From the IMG/VR virus record IMGVR_UViG_3300029982_000009: 64,000 nucleotides of DNA. One strand, given 5' to 3'. The notes under the pieces are model-generated. The model worked only from the letters and a program-made list of their open reading frames with translations. It did no database searches and had not been told where the DNA came from. Below, piece by piece: positions 11,918-61,800 of this stretch; position 1 is the stretch's first letter, and the number at the start of each line of letters is the position of its first letter. Source of the DNA: a virus. Lineage: Duplodnaviria; Caudoviricetes. Made by a program: the position numbers and the translations under genes.

Positions 11918-14900
11918 TTACCACCCTTGGAACTCCGCGCTCCATCCAGCACCGCCATCTCCGCCCGTTCCGGATGTCGTATAGGTTGCCGCCGTGTAGC
12001 CGGAACCGCCCGACGCCGTGCAAGAGGCCAAAGCGCCTCCGCTCCACGTCGGGGTAACCGTCCCGCCCGACCCTCCGCCACCCAGAATGTTGAAAGTTAC
12101 ATTCGTCCCTGTGCCGCATCCTGCGCCAGCCTGTACCACCGTGCAACTGGACAGCGCCCCGGAAGTGACGCCCAGTGTTGCTTTGGGCTGGCTCGTGCAG
12201 GTCCCGCTTGTTGCCGCAGCCTCAGGCACGGTAACCAGGCCCCCAGGACCACCAGCCGTGTAGATGGATGGCCAAGTCGAAACGGCAGCTTGCGAGGAAA
12301 GAACTACGACACCCCCGCCTCCACCTGATCCTGCTCCTGTAGAGTTTGCAGCAGGAGGTGCGCCGTATCCTCCACTCGCGTCAATGATGCCCGTGTGAGT
12401 GCCGTCTGTACCCGTTATCGAGGCGCACATCAGGATGACAGGTGCTCCACCATTTCCGGCTGCTCCCCCTGTGCTACCTCCCTGCTTGCCACCCCCGCCA
12501 TAGGAATATAGGCCATCCAGCCCAGCTCCCAAGGCAAGGAAATTGTGCTTAAGGCCGGAGGAAAGCGTACCTCCATTTCCACCGTTTCCGCCGTTTGCTG
12601 CTCCTGCCGCTCCACCGCCAGTCGTACCAATATTGGTAGCGTAGTAATAGGGTAGCCCAGCAGTACCGGCAGCAGTGCCACCACCCGACCCACCGCCACC
12701 GCTGCTATCCATCGGGTAGCCATTTCCATATCCAGCCATTGCGCCATTCGCTTCAATCGTCCCTGCAATCGTGCAGGCGCCGGATACGTGGACGATCAAA
12801 CCTGCCGCAGAGTTCACCGTCACCGTGTTGCCATAAGGAACGGTGAAGGTCGTGTAATTATACTCGCCGCTCATGTTGCCGCTGGCGTTGGTGTTCGAGC
12901 CATTTGATCCGTCGCCAAAATATTGCAGCCAGCCGGGGACGTTCGGACTCATAGCCGATCCGGTGGCTGCAACGGTGCAACTGCCCCCCAACGTGCAAGT
13001 CTGCCCATTTACCGTGGTCGAACTGTTGGCCAGCGCAGAGTTAGGTATCGCGCTGGCGATCACTGACAAAGATGGTGTAGAGGCAGAGTTGCTCACCGTT
13101 GGAACCAGCCAGGAAGGCCAAGTGCCCGCCGAAGCTGCAAAGTTTGTAACCGTGCCGAATGAAGTGCATCCGGTGCCAGAGGCGCTGGCTCCACTTGGCC
13201 CGAACGTATAGGTGCAAGATGAACCGGCCCCCGCGTTGCCCGTCGACCCGGAAGTCAGTTGCCAGCTTTGCGTCGCCGGGTTGTAGCCGAGAATGTCTTC
13301 CGCCTGCTTGGCCTGGGCGCTATTCCAGCCCTGCGCGTTCAGCATGGGATAGGTCGCATTCCATGCCGCGCACTGTGCGCTTGTGCCGCAGCCAACAACC
13401 ACCGCCCCCATCTTGCTTCCTCCGTTGCCCCCATAAGGTGGCAACCCCATGAACAGTCCATCGCGATGAGGGCCGGAAAGCACCATTCCATACGGCGTAG
13501 TTAGTTGGCCGCGTCCGGGGATATACCCTGTTAAACTAACCGCTGGGTAACCGTCATAAAGTGTCGGATCGTTGTTGTTTGCAAACTGGCCCTCGTAATC
13601 GTTACTCCCGAATTGACCGGCTGATTGGAAGTAGAAATTGGAATGCTGGCCGCCTTCTTGATAGTTATTGAAGCCGAAATTCAACCCATTGATCTTGATT
13701 CTGAAATAATGCGGCTGCTCCAGCGTATCCCCCGTGGCGAACGTACCGACAACCGGAGTCGTGACGATTGCCGATCCATCCACAGCTCCGGTGGCCCCGT
13801 TGTAGACATTTAGAGTTCGTCCTTGCGGGTAGATGTGATACGGATTATTGTTCACAGCCACCACCGGCGTCCCGGTAATGCCCGCACCTGCATTTAAAAT
13901 AGTGCATCCTGAGAGCGCGGTGCCTACCACTGTGGGATAGATCATCGGCGCGGAAGTGTAAGTGATGCCTGTAATCTGGATGGTAGGAGGCGAGTTTACT
14001 GTGTAACTTGTGCCGCCAGTCGCTGTGCAAGCAGTAACTGCGCCGCCGCTCACCGACACCGTAGCCGTACCGCCTGAGCCTGTCAAGGCTGGGGCATAGC
14101 CATAGGACCGCGTATTGATGGTGCCGTTCACTCCGGCGCCGTTGTAAATCGTCAATGTGTTTCCGCTGGCACTGGAAACAATAGGATATATCACCCGGAC
14201 AGTTCCGTCCAGCCCACTCTCTCCGCTGACGGCCATCCCGTTCGTCACACCCGGAACTACCCAATCGGCATCCATACCAAAGCCATAACCGGTAAGTCCG
14301 CCCGCAGCTACTGTCGAGTTATTTGTGAGAGGGTAATTCATCACATCCACGGTGATGTGCGTCCCGTCCGGCACTGCCGTGATATGAGAGCATTGCCAAC
14401 TAGGGTCCACCTTGTCGAACATGCAGACCGTCTGGCCGGTACTGAATCCTGTCGAACTGGCAACAGGGATCGTCACGTTGGACAGCGGCATGGTGTTCGT
14501 GCCGCCCGTTTGGGAGCCGGTGGTTATAGCCGCCGTGGTCGTCGTTGTGGCAGTTGTCAGGCCAAACGTTGAGTCCCAATTGGCTGCGCTGGAGCCGGTA
14601 AATGTGCCTGCACTGATGCCTGAGATATACCCTGCGTTGTAGCCATGCGTAACGTCAATCATGGCCAAGTCGTTCCCCCAGCTTCCGGTGACTCCCTGAG
14701 TCTGCGTGAGGGCAAATGTGCAGGTAGCTCCGCAGGTCTGTGTATTGAGCCTGCCCTCTGGAACATTCCCCGTCTCTCCCAGGCGTGAGCGCCATTCCAG
14801 GCCCTCGTTCTGTGCTAAACCTTGGCCCACACTAAAGGCTCCTGTAAGGAGCGGTATCGAGTCACCTGGCGCATAACTGGTCAAGCTGATGTTATGCCCA

Positions 14901-16222
14901 GCCTGCGAACCCGACGAATGCACCCACATCTGGGTAATCATAGTATTCAGACTGGTTTCATCCCCGTCAAAATCTCGCGTACCCCCGAAAACGGATTGTT
15001 GAAGATTAAGCGCGGCAGCAGGATGCGGAGTATTGCCGCTTCCGGCACTGGTAATCGTTTGAGCAAACAGGGGCTGGGCATAGTGCCGATTATCCCCAAG
15101 TGACATGCCACCATTACAAATCACCTGCGGTGGACCCCATCTATAATCAGTCACACAACCGCTAGTAGTTGTGGCGGCAGGCCCATTCACTGGAATGCCA
15201 TAATCTGTCGTATTTCCCATGCCCCAGGGCTGTGCTTCCGTCTGCGCATAGTTCGCGGGAGCCAGAATGGAACAGGCAACCGACGGAGCGGCGAGGCACG
15301 CCAGAAACGAGTTGGCAATGCCGTTGTTCCCCGTTCCTGCTGGGGTTTGCTGCTGCGCTGCGTTGATCTGGCCGTTCGTAGTGCCAGCCACGACGGTGCC
15401 TGGGAATGTGCCATTGCCAGTGGACCCGCCCAGGGTAATAGACGGTGCGCCGGTGCCAACGCTTAAACCTCCTGGGAGCGTGTTTAATTGTGATGGTCCG
15501 CTACCAGTCTGTGCTCCGTTTGTCATCGCGTTCCAAGTTGTCGAGCCGCCTGGTCCGCATCCAGTGCCGTCTGCTTTGGCATAAAGTCCTGTGCAACTTC
15601 CGCTTGCCCCTCCAATAATTACTGGGTTCACTAGTCCGGATCCTAGAGGTCCAGAGAATAAGGCCTCACCGCCTGAATTATACATCGTTAATAACGGGGT
15701 ACCGGAACCTATAATTATATTAGTAGCCTGGAAGTTACCCCCTGGTGTGGTTGACGTACCATTTGCAGGTAATGCAGCATTAGCGGTCGCTTGGGCGGCA
15801 GTTTCTGCGGTAATAGCTCTGGCGGTTTCACCTGAAAAAATAGTTCGTTCATCGGTTATCGATGTTATCACACTAGCATTTGTTAGAACAATCGCAACAG
15901 GAATATCGGTTACACCAAAATTCGTCGTTTTCACTGCGGGTACGCACGATGCCGAGGTATTAAGATAGATATAATTTAGGGATGAGGCAGTAAGTGTTAA
16001 TGTCCCTCCGCTATATATAAATATTGACCCTTGGCAGTTAACAGTTCCAGCCGATATTTCTGCTTGCAATCCTGTGCCAGCGGTAACCCAATACCCGGGC
16101 GCAGTACCGTTAGAATATTTTGCATTAAGCGCAGAAATTGGAGCAATTTGAGTCGCTGGATTCTGCGCAAGGCTAAAGGGGCCTATACAGGCTAACATTA
16201 TTGATAAAATTATTTTTCTCAT
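11918..16222 (-). CDS. signal-peptide-bearing Gly/Thr-rich tail-fibre-like protein
   Basis: MRKIILSIMLACIGPFSLA signal peptide; Gly-rich GGxGG C-terminus; overlaps baseplate wedge stop (ATGA); GC-rich body. Confidence 0.75.
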   Translation of the reverse strand: MRKIILSIMLACIGPFSLAQNPATQIAPISALNAKYSNGTAPGYWVTAGTGLQAEISAGTVNCQGSIFIYSGGTLTLTASSLNYIYLNTSASCVPAVKTTNFGVTDIPVAIVLTNASVITSITDERTIFSGETARAITAETAAQATANAALPANGTSTTPGGNFQATNIIIGSGTPLLTMYNSGGEALFSGPLGSGLVNPVIIGGASGSCTGLYAKADGTGCGPGGSTTWNAMTNGAQTGSGPSQLNTLPGGLSVGTGAPSITLGGSTGNGTFPGTVVAGTTNGQINAAQQQTPAGTGNNGIANSFLACLAAPSVACSILAPANYAQTEAQPWGMGNTTDYGIPVNGPAATTTSGCVTDYRWGPPQVICNGGMSLGDNRHYAQPLFAQTITSAGSGNTPHPAAALNLQQSVFGGTRDFDGDETSLNTMITQMWVHSSGSQAGHNISLTSYAPGDSIPLLTGAFSVGQGLAQNEGLEWRSRLGETGNVPEGRLNTQTCGATCTFALTQTQGVTGSWGNDLAMIDVTHGYNAGYISGISAGTFTGSSAANWDSTFGLTTATTTTTAAITTGSQTGGTNTMPLSNVTIPVASSTGFSTGQTVCMFDKVDPSWQCSHITAVPDGTHITVDVMNYPLTNNSTVAAGGLTGYGFGMDADWVVPGVTNGMAVSGESGLDGTVRVIYPIVSSASGNTLTIYNGAGVNGTINTRSYGYAPALTGSGGTATVSVSGGAVTACTATGGTSYTVNSPPTIQITGITYTSAPMIYPTVVGTALSGCTILNAGAGITGTPVVAVNNNPYHIYPQGRTLNVYNGATGAVDGSAIVTTPVVGTFATGDTLEQPHYFRIKINGLNFGFNNYQEGGQHSNFYFQSAGQFGSNDYEGQFANNNDPTLYDGYPAVSLTGYIPGRGQLTTPYGMVLSGPHRDGLFMGLPPYGGNGGSKMGAVVVGCGTSAQCAAWNATYPMLNAQGWNSAQAKQAEDILGYNPATQSWQLTSGSTGNAGAGSSCTYTFGPSGASASGTGCTSFGTVTNFAASAGTWPSWLVPTVSNSASTPSLSVIASAIPNSALANSSTTVNGQTCTLGGSCTVAATGSAMSPNVPGWLQYFGDGSNGSNTNASGNMSGEYNYTTFTVPYGNTVTVNSAAGLIVHVSGACTIAGTIEANGAMAGYGNGYPMDSSGGGGSGGGTAAGTAGLPYYYATNIGTTGGGAAGAANGGNGGNGGTLSSGLKHNFLALGAGLDGLYSYGGGGKQGGSTGGAAGNGGAPVILMCASITGTDGTHTGIIDASGGYGAPPAANSTGAGSGGGGGVVVLSSQAAVSTWPSIYTAGGPGGLVTVPEAAATSGTCTSQPKATLGVTSGALSSCTVVQAGAGCGTGTNVTFNILGGGGSGGTVTPTWSGGALASCTASGGSGYTAATYTTSGTGGDGGAGWSAEFQGW

Positions 16223-19646: not shown

Positions 19647-19652
19647 TATTTA
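19647..19652 (-). promoter_or_regulatory. late promoter TAAATA, 5 nt before ATG
   Basis: TAAATA-N5-ATG, same geometry at several other late genes. Confidence 0.7.
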
Positions 19653-19707
19653 TGCTCTAGATACAAGACGGTTAATTCATTAATGAATTCGCGGCTGACA
19701 GGATGGG

Positions 19708-20463: not shown

Positions 20464-20489
20464 TTATATCACCTTATTTGTATTTATAC

Positions 20490-23203: not shown

Positions 23204-24244
23204 CTAAAGTTGTATATCGCTAAGGCTAGTATCAGCTTGCGTTTCGATTGTGGGGAAGTCACCGCTTTTTGTGTTCGTGCTAACCGCAGTGTTATCACTT
23301 CCTAATATAACTGTTGGTGAGTTAGCTGAAAACCCAGAAAACGATGGAATAGCAGACGGTGTTAGACTAGAAATGGTTCCATTTAAAGATGGGGATAAAT
23401 CAGGATTTGGACCTAAAAGTCGGGTAGTTCCGTTAGAAAAATTTTGCAAACCAAATTGCGAGGCAAATAATCGGCTAAACACGGGTACAACAGAAATATT
23501 AACAGTCATCTGACACGGAATTTTAGTTATTTCTCCGTTTAATCCTGGTAATGCAACGGTAACATAATCGACATTGTCGGGAAAAGTAGTAGTAACGTTA
23601 GTAACAACAACCGGAAGACTATCTAACCCTACAAACCCGATGCCTGTTAAATTGACAATTAATGGCGGCGCTCCTGCTAAGTTAATTTTTCCGGATCCCG
23701 CGCTTGCGTCATTTCCGGTAAACATCATAGTTAGGCAACGAAGAAAGTGGATTGCCGCAACTACATATTGGCCCTCATATGGGGTTCTAACGACAAAATC
23801 ACCACTTATATCAAAAGGCTTAATTTCACTATTTTTGTACGAGTGATATGTAAAATTACTATGAGTAACAGCTTGATTCTCATATGTTGAAGAAAATGAA
23901 AGAGGAACTGACGGCTGAAAGGGGAAGACGACGCCATTTGTTTGATTAAGAATTTTTAATAAAGTATTTGCTGGGTCTCTATAAAAAATTGCAGGACTTC
24001 CTGACAGCATACTGATTTTAACTCGTTTATCATTACCCGAAGCGCCATTAAATGTTACTTTGGGGGTAGTGGCTTTTAATGATGGTATATTTAAGCTCGA
24101 TACTCTTGAAGTACTAGGAAACATTGTTCCTATTTGCGTCGGGGTAAATGATGTTACTGAGTCAACTCCCGATGCATCTGTTACAGATGGAGTCGGCGCA
24201 AATTGATCTTCACTTTGACTCATATCTGGCAATGGAATTTGCAT
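23204..24244 (-). CDS. baseplate/tail-tube initiator-like protein (gp48/gp54-like)
   Basis: GVVFPFQP...Y......HSNF..H.Y.NS...I.G.F ... AAIHFLR..T.MF.G ... PP...L.G. Confidence 0.65.
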   Translation of the reverse strand: MQIPLPDMSQSEDQFAPTPSVTDASGVDSVTSFTPTQIGTMFPSTSRVSSLNIPSLKATTPKVTFNGASGNDKRVKISMLSGSPAIFYRDPANTLLKILNQTNGVVFPFQPSVPLSFSSTYENQAVTHSNFTYHSYKNSEIKPFDISGDFVVRTPYEGQYVVAAIHFLRCLTMMFTGNDASAGSGKINLAGAPPLIVNLTGIGFVGLDSLPVVVTNVTTTFPDNVDYVTVALPGLNGEITKIPCQMTVNISVVPVFSRLFASQFGLQNFSNGTTRLLGPNPDLSPSLNGTISSLTPSAIPSFSGFSANSPTVILGSDNTAVSTNTKSGDFPTIETQADTSLSDIQL

Positions 24245-24251
24245 TTTTTTC

Positions 24252-24280
24252 TTGACCCCGGAAGCAACTTATGTTAATAT
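24252..24280 (+). promoter_or_regulatory. possible sigma70 promoter for late sigma factor gene
   Basis: TTGACC-N17-TAATAT; GTTAATATTAAC palindrome (24273-24284) overlaps the -10. Confidence 0.45.
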
Positions 24281-24329
24281 TAACTTATAACATATTTATG
24301 CTTAAAATGTAAGTAGTACGGGGGACCCC

Positions 24330-25193
24330 ATTAAAGTTAATTATTTAAATAATCGTGATTTACTCAAGGAAATTCATCTTTCAAAGAATTCATATTGCTC
24401 TTATCGAAATGTTGAATTAGATCATCAATATGATGTTATTATATTTGATGTTACAGAAATATCGAATAGTATTCAGACAGCTAAGATCAATAGAGCAGCT
24501 AGAATTTTTCGGGAAACTGCAAATAAGATAGACCCAGCTAGTATCTTAGATACTGATTTAGTTTTTCGTGTTATGACTTGGGAACATATTCCGATGTTAC
24601 CGCCTAAGAAAACTATTGAAGAAAAGTTGGCTTCTGCATCTTCTGGTCTAAGCATTAATAAATTTTTTGAAGATAACGAAGAAGAAGATGTGGTAGAATT
24701 AGACGCAGAGATTGAAACTTTAATACAGACAAATATTAAAGCCGATCATATACGTATTAATTTTCCTCCATTTTTTCATTATAGATTAGATGAATTAGGT
24801 AATGCATTTCAGGTAGGCAAAAGCCATTGGATCGGGGAGTTTGATTCGGGATCATTTTGTAAGACGCAAGGTAATTTAACAGATACTTTGGCTCGTATGA
24901 TTATGAAATTAGTTGAAAAATACGCATCGAAAGGAAATTGGCGTAATTATTCATATCGAGAAGAATTTGAAGGCCAGGCTATTATGCAGTTAATTCAGGT
25001 TTGTCTTCAGTTTGATGAAAGTAAGAGCAGTAATCCATTTTCATTTTTTACGACCGTTGCTAGAAATGCATTTTTACGTATTTTAAACATTGAAAAGAAA
25101 AATCAGCAGATTAGAGACAAACTTCTAATAGATAACCATATGAATCCTTCCTATAGCGCAACAAGCCAGGCCGCAATTTTCGAGAGTGAGTAA
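24330..25193 (+). CDS. late-transcription sigma factor (T4 gp55-like), ATT start
   Basis: KVNYLNNRDLLKEIH N-terminus in frame 81 codons upstream of the ORF-track ATG; NWRNYSYREEF...QFDESKSSNPFSFFTT...NAFLRILNIEKKNQ.IRD.LL gp55-like core. Confidence 0.85.
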   Translation: MKVNYLNNRDLLKEIHLSKNSYCSYRNVELDHQYDVIIFDVTEISNSIQTAKINRAARIFRETANKIDPASILDTDLVFRVMTWEHIPMLPPKKTIEEKLASASSGLSINKFFEDNEEEDVVELDAEIETLIQTNIKADHIRINFPPFFHYRLDELGNAFQVGKSHWIGEFDSGSFCKTQGNLTDTLARMIMKLVEKYASKGNWRNYSYREEFEGQAIMQLIQVCLQFDESKSSNPFSFFTTVARNAFLRILNIEKKNQQIRDKLLIDNHMNPSYSATSQAAIFESE

Positions 25194-32829: not shown

Positions 32830-32862
32830 TTCACTCCCATGCAACTATATTTATAGTCTAAG

Positions 32863-42885: not shown

Positions 42886-42900
42886 ATTGATATTTATGCC

Positions 42901-43608: not shown

Positions 43609-43824
43609 TTAAAATCGGTAAACAATCCTACCTAAAGAGAGCGAATACGGAGAAAGTTCAACCTGAACGAAATCCCCTGGTTCAAGACGAATATTGTTTT
43701 TACGCATTCTGCCGCCTAGGTAACCAATGACTGTTTGTCCACCAGGAATTTCTACAATCCATGTTGTGTTGGGAAGAGTTTTAACGATTTTACCTTTTAA
43801 TTCGACTAGATCAACTGATGCCAC
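43609..43824 (-). CDS. infA: translation initiation factor IF-1
   Basis: G.IV..LPNT...VE...G..V...L.GRMRKN.IR...GD.V.VELSPY.L..GRIVYR; AGGAG RBS, GTG start. Confidence 0.93.
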   Translation of the reverse strand: MASVDLVELKGKIVKTLPNTTWIVEIPGGQTVIGYLGGRMRKNNIRLEPGDFVQVELSPYSLSLGRIVYRF

Positions 43825-46631: not shown

Positions 46632-47669
46632 ATGGCAACAGTGAAAATCATTCAGGGTTCGTATCGCAACCAGGAAATCAAAAACCAAACGTTTACGCTG
46701 ATTAATGGGTACGTGGAAACGCCGAATTCGAAGCATGTTACGGTCGAAGGAACAAAACTTTGTGGCCGTCCGACAGCTCGAATTCGCGTGAAGAGCCAGA
46801 AGGATTTTGTCATTGCCGGCACGGTTGAAACGGTTGATGATCAGATTTCTGTTGAAGAGGAATCCTCTGAGCCGGAAGTTGTTGAAACAGATGCAGCCGT
46901 ACTTGCGCGTATCAGTGATAGGTTTCAGATTTTAACTGAACTGACCCAGGGTGCTCTCACTGGAGATATTCGCGCATTGTTTGTAACCGGCGCCCCGGGA
47001 GTTGGAAAGACTTTCGGTGTTGAAAAGACGCTGCAAGATGCGGGGTTGGTTGAAATTTTTTCCGATCTTCCTCCTCGGTATGAAGTTATTTCTGGTGCAA
47101 TGTCTGCGGTCGGTATGTATATGAAGTTGTACGAATTCCGTGACGATAACAATGTTCTCGTCATTGACGATTGCGATTCGGTTTTTACCGACGAACTTTG
47201 CTTGAACCTGCTGAAAGCTGCATTGGATACGAGCAAGCGCCGCATGATTCACTGGAACGTGGATTCGGTTTCACTTCGGAAGGGTGATTGCCCTAACCAA
47301 TTTGAGTTCAAGGGTTCTATTATCTTCATTTCGAACATTAACTTCAAGAAGGTTCGTTCTGAGCGTATGCGTAACCATCTCGAGGCCCTCATGAGCCGTT
47401 CGCATTTTCTTGATCTTACTGTTCATACGGATCGCGAAAAGTTGCTCAGAATTGAAGACCTGGTTACGAATCATAAGATGCTTTCCCAGTTCAAACTGTC
47501 CGATAAAATGAGCGCAAAGGTTATGAAGTTCGTGCGTGATAACGCTTCGAAATTTAACGAGCTTAGCCTGCGCACTGTCATTAAATTGGCCGGTCTCGCC
47601 AGGACGTTCGACGAGAATGACAAGTGGATGCGAGTTGCTGAACTTTCTATGATGGGAAACCAATTTTAA
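46632..47669 (+). CDS. AAA-family ATPase (conserved T4-like phage family)
   Basis: GAPGVGKT Walker A, VLVIDDCD Walker B, LNLLKAALD, F.F.G.IIFISN, AL.SR. Confidence 0.88.
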   Translation: MATVKIIQGSYRNQEIKNQTFTLINGYVETPNSKHVTVEGTKLCGRPTARIRVKSQKDFVIAGTVETVDDQISVEEESSEPEVVETDAAVLARISDRFQILTELTQGALTGDIRALFVTGAPGVGKTFGVEKTLQDAGLVEIFSDLPPRYEVISGAMSAVGMYMKLYEFRDDNNVLVIDDCDSVFTDELCLNLLKAALDTSKRRMIHWNVDSVSLRKGDCPNQFEFKGSIIFISNINFKKVRSERMRNHLEALMSRSHFLDLTVHTDREKLLRIEDLVTNHKMLSQFKLSDKMSAKVMKFVRDNASKFNELSLRTVIKLAGLARTFDENDKWMRVAELSMMGNQF

Positions 47670-50488: not shown

Positions 50489-51097
50489 TTAGGAGCCCTC
50501 TTCAATATTAAAATAGTTAGATGCATCCTGAATATAATACCGACTTAACGCAAAATAATTTCCATGAATAATAATTTCATTGCCGGAGGCTAACGCTTCC
50601 GGCAAATTGTCGTGTCTAAAACCCAAATTCTTAATGAAAGTTAATGCTTCTTCATGTGTTGGAATATTTCCGCGTTTTGAAAATGGATTTCTCGGGGCAA
50701 TCCAATTATGTAATTCTTTTTGAACAAGTCGACTAATACCGATATCCGAAACATGCTGACTCCAAGTAAAAGAAAATCCATCCTCTGGAAAAATCAAATA
50801 TGGATTTCCGAATAGGTAGACTTCTGTTATATTTGGTGTGCAGCTTCTTGAATTTGATCTTAACGCGGTAAATCCGTTTGTTTTAAGAATATGATCCAGC
50901 ATCGCCTGCTCTTGTAATGATTGCCCTAGCGGCATTCTAGTATTAGGTGTCGCCGCATTAAAAAATGGTTTTCTTGTATCAATACCACGATATAAAAATG
51001 TATTAGCGGCTTTGACACCGGAAATAAATTCCTTACAGGAATCATTTATTCGGGTTAATGTATCATTTATACTGATTTCAAATTCGTCGGCTTTCAT
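50489..51097 (-). CDS. putative ADP-ribosyltransferase-fold protein, paralogue 1
   Basis: FLYRG...LRSNSRSCT...FG.PY.IFP..GF.FTWS...GNEI.I.G.Y. Confidence 0.6.
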   Translation of the reverse strand: MKADEFEISINDTLTRINDSCKEFISGVKAANTFLYRGIDTRKPFFNAATPNTRMPLGQSLQEQAMLDHILKTNGFTALRSNSRSCTPNITEVYLFGNPYLIFPEDGFSFTWSQHVSDIGISRLVQKELHNWIAPRNPFSKRGNIPTHEEALTFIKNLGFRHDNLPEALASGNEIIIHGNYFALSRYYIQDASNYFNIEEGS

Positions 51098-51227
51098 GTA
51101 ATTATTTAGCTCGATTACGAGATAAGCCCGTATTGTTCTTAAGAGCCACGGATGTAGCGAGTTAGAATTAAGATATACCTTTTAAGCTCTTAATTGTTAT
51201 ATTTTTCATAAATGGCTAAATATATTT

Positions 51228-51415: not shown

Positions 51416-51443
51416 CGAATTACCTCATCGCATAAATATCTAT

Positions 51444-60901: not shown

Positions 60902-61225
60902 TTAGCAAAGGTAATTCGCACCGTACAAATTAACTGCGGTTCCCCAGCCGAAATTGGCATCAAAAATATTTCCGCGCACATGCTTTGCCGCAGCGGCCCA
61001 GCTAGCGGCCCTGTAGATGTCGCCGGCTTGCTTGTCAATGAAGCAATAAACGCTTCTGCTGCCTTGGTCACTTTTAATGACCTTAAAAAACTTCCCGCCA
61101 TTAGAAATTTCGATAATGGACGGCGTGAGATTCTTGAAGTTTTCGGCATAATATTTGTTCGTTTCGTCTTGAATCTTGGCAACAAAACCAACCACCTGAG
61201 CAGCAACCTTTTCGTTAGCTTTCAT
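60902..61225 (-). CDS. conserved phage hypothetical protein
   Basis: RSVYCFIDK..GDIYRAASW.A.AK.VRGNI motif; start trimmed to ATG 61225 below promoter. Confidence 0.75.
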   Translation of the reverse strand: MKANEKVAAQVVGFVAKIQDETNKYYAENFKNLTPSIIEISNGGKFFKVIKSDQGSRSVYCFIDKQAGDIYRAASWAAAAKHVRGNIFDANFGWGTAVNLYGANYLC

Positions 61226-61244
61226 CCATTCCCTCACTGAAATA

Positions 61245-61273
61245 AGTGTATCAAAAATCAGATCACTTGTCAA
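61245..61273 (-). promoter_or_regulatory. sigma70-type early promoter
   Basis: TTGACA-N17-TACACT then TATTTCAGTGAGG. Confidence 0.8.
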
Positions 61274-61280
61274 CCGAAAA

Positions 61281-61580
61281 TTACAATTGATTTTTATATT
61301 TCTGCTTTCCCATCCACCATTCGTCGGAAACGGAGTCATACAACGGATGACGATAATCATCCTCATCCCATTCGCCGCCGCACAAATATTCGCTTTCGGT
61401 ATTGCCCGCACGATCCGGCCCCTCGCCGTTTTCGCTATAGCCGTACGAATCAAATCCTTCGTCGTCATCGTAGCATTCAGGATTAATACCGTTACCGCGT
61501 CCTCCGCCATTTTTTGCCCACCAATTTTGATCCTTGGCATACCAACGGCTTACGGTCGGACTGTATTTTCCTACGCTCAT
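61281..61580 (-). CDS. acidic conserved phage hypothetical protein
   Basis: GKYSPTV...EGFDSYGY...DRAG..E..Y motif. Confidence 0.75.
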   Translation of the reverse strand: MSVGKYSPTVSRWYAKDQNWWAKNGGGRGNGINPECYDDDEGFDSYGYSENGEGPDRAGNTESEYLCGGEWDEDDYRHPLYDSVSDEWWMGKQKYKNQL

Positions 61581-61589
61581 ATCTTATTT

Positions 61590-61800
61590 CCTCACTGAAA
61601 TAAGTATAGCAAAGTTCGGTACCGAATGCAAGCGAAAAATGATCGGAAAACACAAAAAATGATCTGTTGAAAATAAAGGACTTATATTGCCCCAAAATGC
61701 CACCAATTTTTTCGACAATATAATGCTACTCCAGAGGCTAATTGGGGCCCTGCTGGGGTAAAATCAGGAAATCGGTCCTTTAAAATCAACACTTTACCGA
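61590..61800 (-). repeat. promoter-linked ~200 bp intergenic module, copy 3 (inverted)
   Basis: reverse complement carries the same boxes and TTGCAT (61631)-N17-TATACT (61608). Confidence 0.85.

Follow-up and report, generated by a model that had tools for sequence, protein, structure and literature searches.

The late sigma factor gene of an uncultured giant phage from peat, known from metagenomic DNA (IMG/VR record IMGVR_UViG_3300029982_000009) raises the question of which codon starts its translation and what that codon does for the phage. The window, which is the whole 64,000-nt stretch of this DNA that was analyzed, contains a gp55-like reading frame (frame 0 of the window sequence) that is closed by a TAA at 24303–24305 and ends with a TAA at 25191–25193. 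The codons after the upstream stop are AAT GTA AGT AGT ACG GGG GAC CCC ATT AAA GTT AAT TAT, in which the ATT occupies 24330–24332 on the plus strand, and the first ATG, GTG or TTG of the frame is the ATG at 24573–24575. The first-pass annotation, made from the sequence alone, had claimed that the frame is open from the TAA at 24303 without a canonical start until 24573, that the family-typical N-terminus begins at the ATT at 24330, and that a G-rich site lies 4 nt upstream of this codon. All of these coordinates were found to be correct. The upstream TAA closes the frame nine codons 5′ of the ATT, a Shine-Dalgarno-like GGGGGA (24320–24325, plus strand) lies 4 nt before it, and conservation within the family sets in exactly at that codon. 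We are highly confident that the late sigma factor is initiated at the ATT at 24330 and not at the ATG at 24573. The coding sequence so defined (24330–25193, plus strand) comprises 287 codons and the TAA, and the ATG at 24573 is an internal codon (Met82) that has been wrongly taken as the start by gene callers.

To place this frame among the genes of the window, the 64 kb were scanned for stop-to-stop frames of 120 codons or more, of which there are 74. The sigma frame had the longest start-less leader among the plausible genes, 89 codons. Five other frames were flagged, two of which lie inside the long minus-strand gene at 11918–16222 and one of which overlaps the plus-strand gene at 46632–47669; the remaining two (50489–51181, minus strand; 61200–61598, plus strand) have leaders of only 28–29 codons, which could have arisen by chance. 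Since no comparable leader was found in the other plausible genes, the missing canonical start appears to be gene-specific within these 64 kb. An alternative genetic code was ruled out because a second in-frame stop, the TAA at 24288, is located just 5′ of the TAA at 24303.

By profile, motif and predicted fold, the product is classified as a putative gp55-type late sigma factor. The 287-residue protein matched phrog_12791, annotated as ‘sigma factor for late transcription’ (1.8e-62), and phrog_234 (4.6e-25), and gave no match in Pfam. A phmmer comparison with T4 gp55 (PDB 7d7c/7d7d; chain 7d7c_F of an RNA polymerase open complex) aligned residues 184–259 with an E value of 1.1e-4, and residues 2–16 aligned with residues 7–21 of T4 gp55. 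The AlphaFold model of the product had an overall pLDDT of 85.3, and its top Foldseek match was again 7d7c_F (E value, 9e-4; probability, 1.00; rmsd of 1.3 Å over 89 columns), with sigma domain-2 chains next in rank, which indicates a sigma-region-2-like helical domain. The N-terminus of the window protein carries the motif K-x-N-Y-[LV]-N-N-[KR]-[DE]-L-L, and residues N4, Y5, L6, N7, N8, D10, I15 and H16 were invariant across 40 homologues. The likeness to T4 covers both the N-terminal K-x-N-Y-[LV]-N-N motif and the sigma-region-2-like domain. It extends to the surroundings of the gene: the gene next downstream is gp47/SbcD-like, as gp47/46-type recombination nuclease genes adjoin the sigma gene in T4, and TATAAATA-type late promoters occur in the window.

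The window protein differs from T4 gp55 in length (287 versus 185 aa). Approximately 160 extra residues, within residues 1–170 (24330–24830), separate its N-terminal motif from the sigma-like domain. Most of this extra region is confidently folded in the model, with a disordered stretch at residues 116–135, and no match to a fold in the PDB was obtained for it; one relative (P0023) has a further Cys-rich insertion of approximately 25 residues there. The start codon also sets the window gene apart from T4 gene 55, which starts at ATG. The nearest cultured phages are the jumbo phages Atu_ph07, Phosso, PA5oct and the Rak2-like group, with protein identities of 33–37%. The sigma genes of PA5oct, Atu_ph07 and Phosso start, unlike that of the window, at an ATG, which in the cultured jumbo relatives is located one to four codons 5′ of the N-terminal motif. 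A nucleotide search of cultured phages with the locus gave no match, and the metagenomic runs that contain it are peat metagenomes.

The codon used at the position of the ATT was surveyed by aligning the 30 closest database proteins and obtaining DNA for a subset. At this column the entries have either an annotated first M (MK[QTV]NYLNN) or an internal I that unconserved residues, varying in number, precede; the other entries are truncated. The unconserved residues before the internal I (GG, EA, RG) are the translated Shine-Dalgarno sequence. When the DNA was checked, an Ile codon recurred at the column. ATT was found in ten distinct lineages including the window (the window, L161/L162, L081, L082, which equals L174, L166, L167 on a 360-kb contig, L168, L172/L173 on a 353-kb contig, L175 and L074), and ATC was verified on DNA in one (L163, whose protein is 75% identical); an Ile codon was further deduced from an internal Ile in eight cases known only as protein. 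Other relatives have a canonical codon at the same column, namely ATG in L080, where a stop lies four codons before, GTG in L078, and TTG in L164/L165, where a stop codon stands immediately before. These canonical starts fix the true N-terminus at the column.

The upstream sequences of the ATT and ATC orthologues are consistent with this assignment. A stop upstream with no canonical start in between was observed in the window, L161/L162, L163, L074, L166, L167 and L168, and in the seven loci, from five lineages, that lack a canonical start, the in-frame stop is found 5–35 codons upstream. In every ATT or ATC orthologue, GGAGG, GGGAGG or GGGGG ends 4–7 nt before the column. An ATG or TTG further upstream, when there is one, has no fixed position and either overlaps the Shine-Dalgarno sequence or derives, in varying frames, from a conserved promoter motif. 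ATT was the codon in 9 of 10 lineages (L161/L162 not counted separately from the window), whereas it makes up 60% of the Ile codons in these genes, which gives an uncorrected P of about 0.04 that ignores relatedness; a preference for ATT over ATA and ATC at the column is thus marginal.

Could the ATT be an assembly error, or the gene be decaying, so that the functional protein starts at the ATG at 24573 (206 aa) or no functional protein is made? Gene callers do report a product of 206/207 aa, and the 207-aa database entry P0002 is such a truncated call of the window gene. The ATT nevertheless held in contigs from other sequencing runs. An independent peat DNA run yielded a contig that spans 23800–24804 with 0 differences and reads ATT; a contig of a metatranscriptome run spans 24286–24535, also with 0 differences, and reads ATT. 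RNA-library contigs cover the locus in part; their ends are not usable as transcript ends, and the uncovered parts are uninformative. The Logan assemblies L161 and L162, from other runs, encode a protein 97% identical and have the same TAA, Shine-Dalgarno sequence and ATT.

The 81 codons between the ATT and the first ATG also do not resemble those of a decaying gene. The protein they encode is identical in L161/L162, and dN/dS over these codons was 0.08 against L163 and 0.18 against L081, with silent sites near saturation; judged by these ratios, the stretch is under strong purifying selection. Residues 10–90 were modeled with pLDDT of 94–98, and a strand is predicted at residues 79–82, directly before Met82. 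A product starting at 24573 would miss the invariant N-terminal motif of the family, the part that matches residues 7–21 of T4 gp55. Together with the recurrence of the ATT arrangement in ten diverged lineages, these observations make an error or decay extremely improbable; to the extent that sequences can decide the matter, this explanation is refuted.

A second alternative is that the N-terminus is reached by another route, such as re-initiation after a mini-ORF, initiation at a near-cognate codon such as the ACG at 24318, or reading by a special phage tRNA. A four-codon mini-ORF (ATG CTT AAA ATG TAA, 24298–24312) does end 17 nt before the ATT. However, the mini-ORF is unconserved: its ATG comes from the late-promoter motif and is in frame in L172 but out of frame in L163, and the 97% relative has ATA in place of its second ATG. 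After inspection of the orthologue leaders, both this mini-ORF and the ATG-TAA ‘start-stop’ at 24307–24312 were rejected as conserved features. The ACG at 24318 lies upstream of the Shine-Dalgarno sequence and is not conserved, and no tRNA genes were found in the 64-kb window. By contrast, the Shine-Dalgarno sequence of every lineage keeps a fixed spacing to the ATT column. We regard these other routes as very unlikely, and direct initiation at the ATT remains the preferred assignment.

To examine how the start codon evolved, a maximum-likelihood tree of 61 family members was built from the part of the protein that is C-terminal to the disputed region. The tree was divided into two clades, each with support of 100/99. 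The clade of 28 rows has canonical starts and mostly an N-terminal extension of 8–12 residues. The clade of 33 rows holds every row with an ATH codon or Ile at the column (18 rows; 10 verified on DNA and 8 deduced from protein), together with six truncated entries of unassigned state, two rows with one extra residue, and seven rows that are canonical at the column and scattered in at least four places. Given this distribution, the Ile-codon start is old and widely retained, and it has occasionally been replaced by ATG or TTG. A single T-to-G change turns ATT into ATG, and silent sites are saturated; retention of ATT over such divergence argues for selection of a weak start rather than for a frozen accident. 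At the same time, the weak start is not indispensable, since ATG or TTG has taken its place in at least seven members of this clade.

Weak starts were also frequent outside the ATT lineages. Start codons were tallied in the canonical-start relatives L001–L160 (160 loci from IMG/VR and JGI metagenomes), with the start of every gene picked by Shine-Dalgarno score under one rule and with ORFs of at least 150 aa taken as neighbors. Among all genes, GTG or TTG was assigned to 57 of 115 sigma genes (50%) and to 38 of 191 neighboring ORFs (20%; Fisher p of 1e-7). Among genes with a Shine-Dalgarno match of at least 4 nt, the counts were 51 of 103 (50%) and 3 of 53 (6%), respectively (Fisher p of 1e-8). 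A variant of the tally gave the same result. This enrichment is support and not proof, since the sequences are related and the picking of starts is heuristic; it suggests that late sigma genes generally favor weak initiation, of which AUU would be the extreme case.

It is known that AUU is a poor start codon. In Escherichia coli in vivo, AUU, AUC, AUA and CUG initiate at 0.1–3% of the level of AUG, and infC and pcnB are the only genes with a confirmed AUU start (Hecht et al., bioRxiv 10.1101/063800). Added IF3 also depresses AUU more than any other start codon, and IF1 supports the discrimination by IF3 rather than relieving it (He et al., PMC5499595). Both the weakness of AUU starts and their suppression by IF3, the latter invoked in the first-pass annotation, are established for infC and pcnB (10.1101/063800; PMC5499595). 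In an optimized context in E. coli extracts, AUU reached 0.5–0.74 of AUG (PMC5499595), so that any throttle exerted by this codon could be mild; these yields are E. coli values and may not be those of the phage host.

A sigma70-type (early) promoter of the sigma gene was identified by consensus scan on the plus strand, with the −35 hexamer TTGACC at 24252–24257 and the extended −10 element TGTTAATAT at 24272–24280, in which TAATAT (24275–24280) is preceded by TG; the spacer is 17 nt. The sequence cTTGACC, directly after the start of the divergent gene, is kept in seven of the eight clade-B orthologue lineages inspected, L175 being the deviating one, and TGnTATAAT-like elements occur at the same spacing in orthologues. 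Transcription of the sigma gene is predicted to start at approximately 24286–24288. The RNA-library contig begins at 24286, which is a weak hint for this start, since contigs do not map RNA ends. The leader is thus approximately 43 nt long, and the second codon of the gene is AAA. The leader with the first 15 codons was less structured than shuffled controls (z = +0.95), no consensus structure was detected in ten aligned orthologue leaders, and an Rfam search with the sigma leader of the window gave no match. With a strong promoter, an open leader, a good Shine-Dalgarno sequence at optimal spacing and an AAA second codon, the start codon is the only weak element of the gene.

Based on these features, a constitutive limit on the dose of the sigma factor can be proposed. 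The AUU at 24330 would be read as Met by the initiator tRNA, presumably with fMet. The sigma message would be made from the first minutes of infection behind the strong, near-consensus sigma70-type promoter, and the AUU would keep the protein scarce and slow to build up despite early and abundant mRNA. With the sigma factor scarce, host RNA polymerase would not be diverted to the YATAAATA promoters too early or too completely, which may benefit the phage. The AUU would in this way set the dose of late transcription and, indirectly, its delay. That the ATT has been kept by selection as a throttle is reasonably likely in our judgment, and as a whole explanation of the locus, an ATT-started sigma gene serving as a selected, clade-wide translational throttle is considered probable.

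The proposed control resembles that of known bacterial genes. As in E. coli infC and pcnB, an AUU start is combined with a functional Shine-Dalgarno sequence and conserved in relatives; there, it keeps the product low and is discriminated against by IF3, both of which are predictions in the present case. In contrast to infC, which is autoregulatory with its own product as the discriminator, the sigma factor has no known link to IF3, and the window case differs from infC and pcnB in being a phage gene with ATC in one lineage. Another comparison is Streptomyces sigR, where a conserved GTC start lets IF3 hold SigR down and where a canonical start leads to overproduction and constitutive expression of the regulon (Feeney et al., 2017, PMC5472188). 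In both systems, the dosage of a sigma factor would be set at initiation by a clade-conserved non-canonical start, as shown for sigR and proposed here for the phage. The codons differ (GTC versus ATT), dependence on IF3 was demonstrated experimentally for sigR alone, and SigR is balanced against a co-transcribed anti-sigma factor, whereas none is evident next to the phage gene.

The promoters on which the sigma factor is expected to act were searched in the window. The sequence YATAAATA was found at 15 sites, ten of them intergenic, and eight of these ten lie 3–48 nt 5′ of a gene on the same strand, mostly virion genes. So placed, YATAAATA is the T4-type late promoter. One such motif, CATAAATA (24293–24300, minus strand), is located inside the sigma leader and faces the divergent virion-protein operon (23204–24244 and beyond). 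Orthologue leaders retain this motif, in plus-strand form ATATTTAT or nearly so, and the early/late promoter layout of 24252–24300 is kept in orthologues as well. The spacing rules of T4 place the late start of this motif at approximately 24287. The predicted early and late starts thus fall on the same base pair. The early promoter of the sigma gene and a late promoter read by the sigma factor itself would then overlap head-on, and use of one should preclude use of the other. Such an arrangement suggests a possible negative feedback on transcription of the sigma gene once late transcription begins.

At four sites (19647–19654, 32848–32855 and 42891–42898 on the minus strand; 51431–51438 on the plus strand), YATAAATA ends 3–5 nt before the downstream ATG, and since the distance is so short, the late mRNAs made from these motifs are probably leaderless. 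Three other sites, at 20481, 31016 and 40090 (all minus strand), end 17 nt before a start.

An alternative to a constant throttle, along the lines of the first-pass inference that IF3 status gates the early-to-late switch, is that the AUU acts as a timed gate, with translation of the sigma factor turned off while discrimination by IF3, together with IF1, is high. A shift in the factors, brought about by the phage or by the infection, would release it and so set the early-to-late switch. AUU is the codon most sensitive to the concentration of IF3 (PMC5499595), and the GTC of sigR offers a precedent, in which IF3 acts on a sigma factor gene by way of its non-canonical start (PMC5472188). The phage itself encodes an IF-1 homologue of 71 aa (43609–43824, minus strand; PF01176, 68 bits), located amid a run of small genes and started by a GTG 4 nt after AGGAG, the same short spacing as that of the sigma Shine-Dalgarno sequence. 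Moreover, several late promoters end 5 nt before an ATG, and some late mRNAs may be leaderless, as noted above. Leaderless mRNAs, too, are disfavored by IF3. Since both would be affected in the same direction, a single shift in the factor balance could favor the sigma AUU and the leaderless late mRNAs together.

The distribution of IF-1 genes in related phages is among the observations that speak against such a gate. Three relatives whose sigma gene starts canonically (L045, L043 and L067) encode IF-1 as well, which is therefore not tied to the ATT start, a co-occurrence that was assessed in canonical-start relatives and cultured phages only. It was found in the related phage records G001–G003 and was absent from PA5oct and Atu_ph07. 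No IF3 homologue or domain was detected in five related phage records, and IF1 is known to support the discrimination by IF3 (PMC5499595), which is opposite to a release. Relatives have exchanged ATT for ATG, TTG or GTG without other visible change, and the leader has no sensor-like or conserved RNA structure. A timed gate is accordingly considered unlikely, and a constitutive throttle on sigma dosage fits the data at least as well.

A wider circuit can also be drawn from these elements. Weak sigma initiation would be a rule of the gp55 type, with AUU in this clade and approximately 50% GUG or UUG in the sister clade; in phages that encode IF-1, a factor shift during infection would raise translation of both the sigma factor and the leaderless late mRNAs, while the late promoter opposing the early promoter of the sigma gene would concurrently switch transcription of that gene off again. 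We consider this full circuit doubtful, slightly more so than the gate on its own, and retain the constitutive throttle as the preferred explanation.

Nearly all database entries of the clade have a wrong N-terminus for the sigma gene. Among the 30 best matches, nine are truncated, including P0001, P0002, P0007, P0012, P0014 and P0021, and the truncated entries begin at a downstream Met or Leu. Another 11 are extended through the ribosome-binding site, including P0003–P0006, P0010, P0011, P0013, P0017, P0020 and P0023. Because almost every entry of the clade is affected, gene callers need to allow ATT and ATC as starts for the gp55-type family.

Full-text literature searches on ATT starts in phages and on gp55 or late sigma factors in jumbo phages returned no such description. 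The kind of control is already known from infC, pcnB and sigR; its occurrence in this gene and in a virus, and its conservation across a clade, are new. Control at the start codon would here act on the master regulator of late genes in a large group of uncultured giant phages known from metagenomes of peat, soil and freshwater, a level not described for phage late sigma factors in searchable papers. The phage gene would thereby form a natural parallel to Streptomyces sigR, and changing ATT to ATG offers a simple genetic way to approach how the amount of the sigma factor and its timing are set.

A further feature was observed in the sigma leader of the two 97% relatives. An insertion of 239 nt (L161, 2489–2727; L162, 1–144) is located between the late-promoter motif and GCTTAAAAT. 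Only chance-level matches to it were obtained in Rfam, and neither the window nor the other loci contain a further copy. The insertion is rich in hairpins (MFE of −67.9 kcal/mol) and includes a perfect 20-nt palindrome; a mobile element, a leader RNA and a small ORF are the candidates for what it may be.
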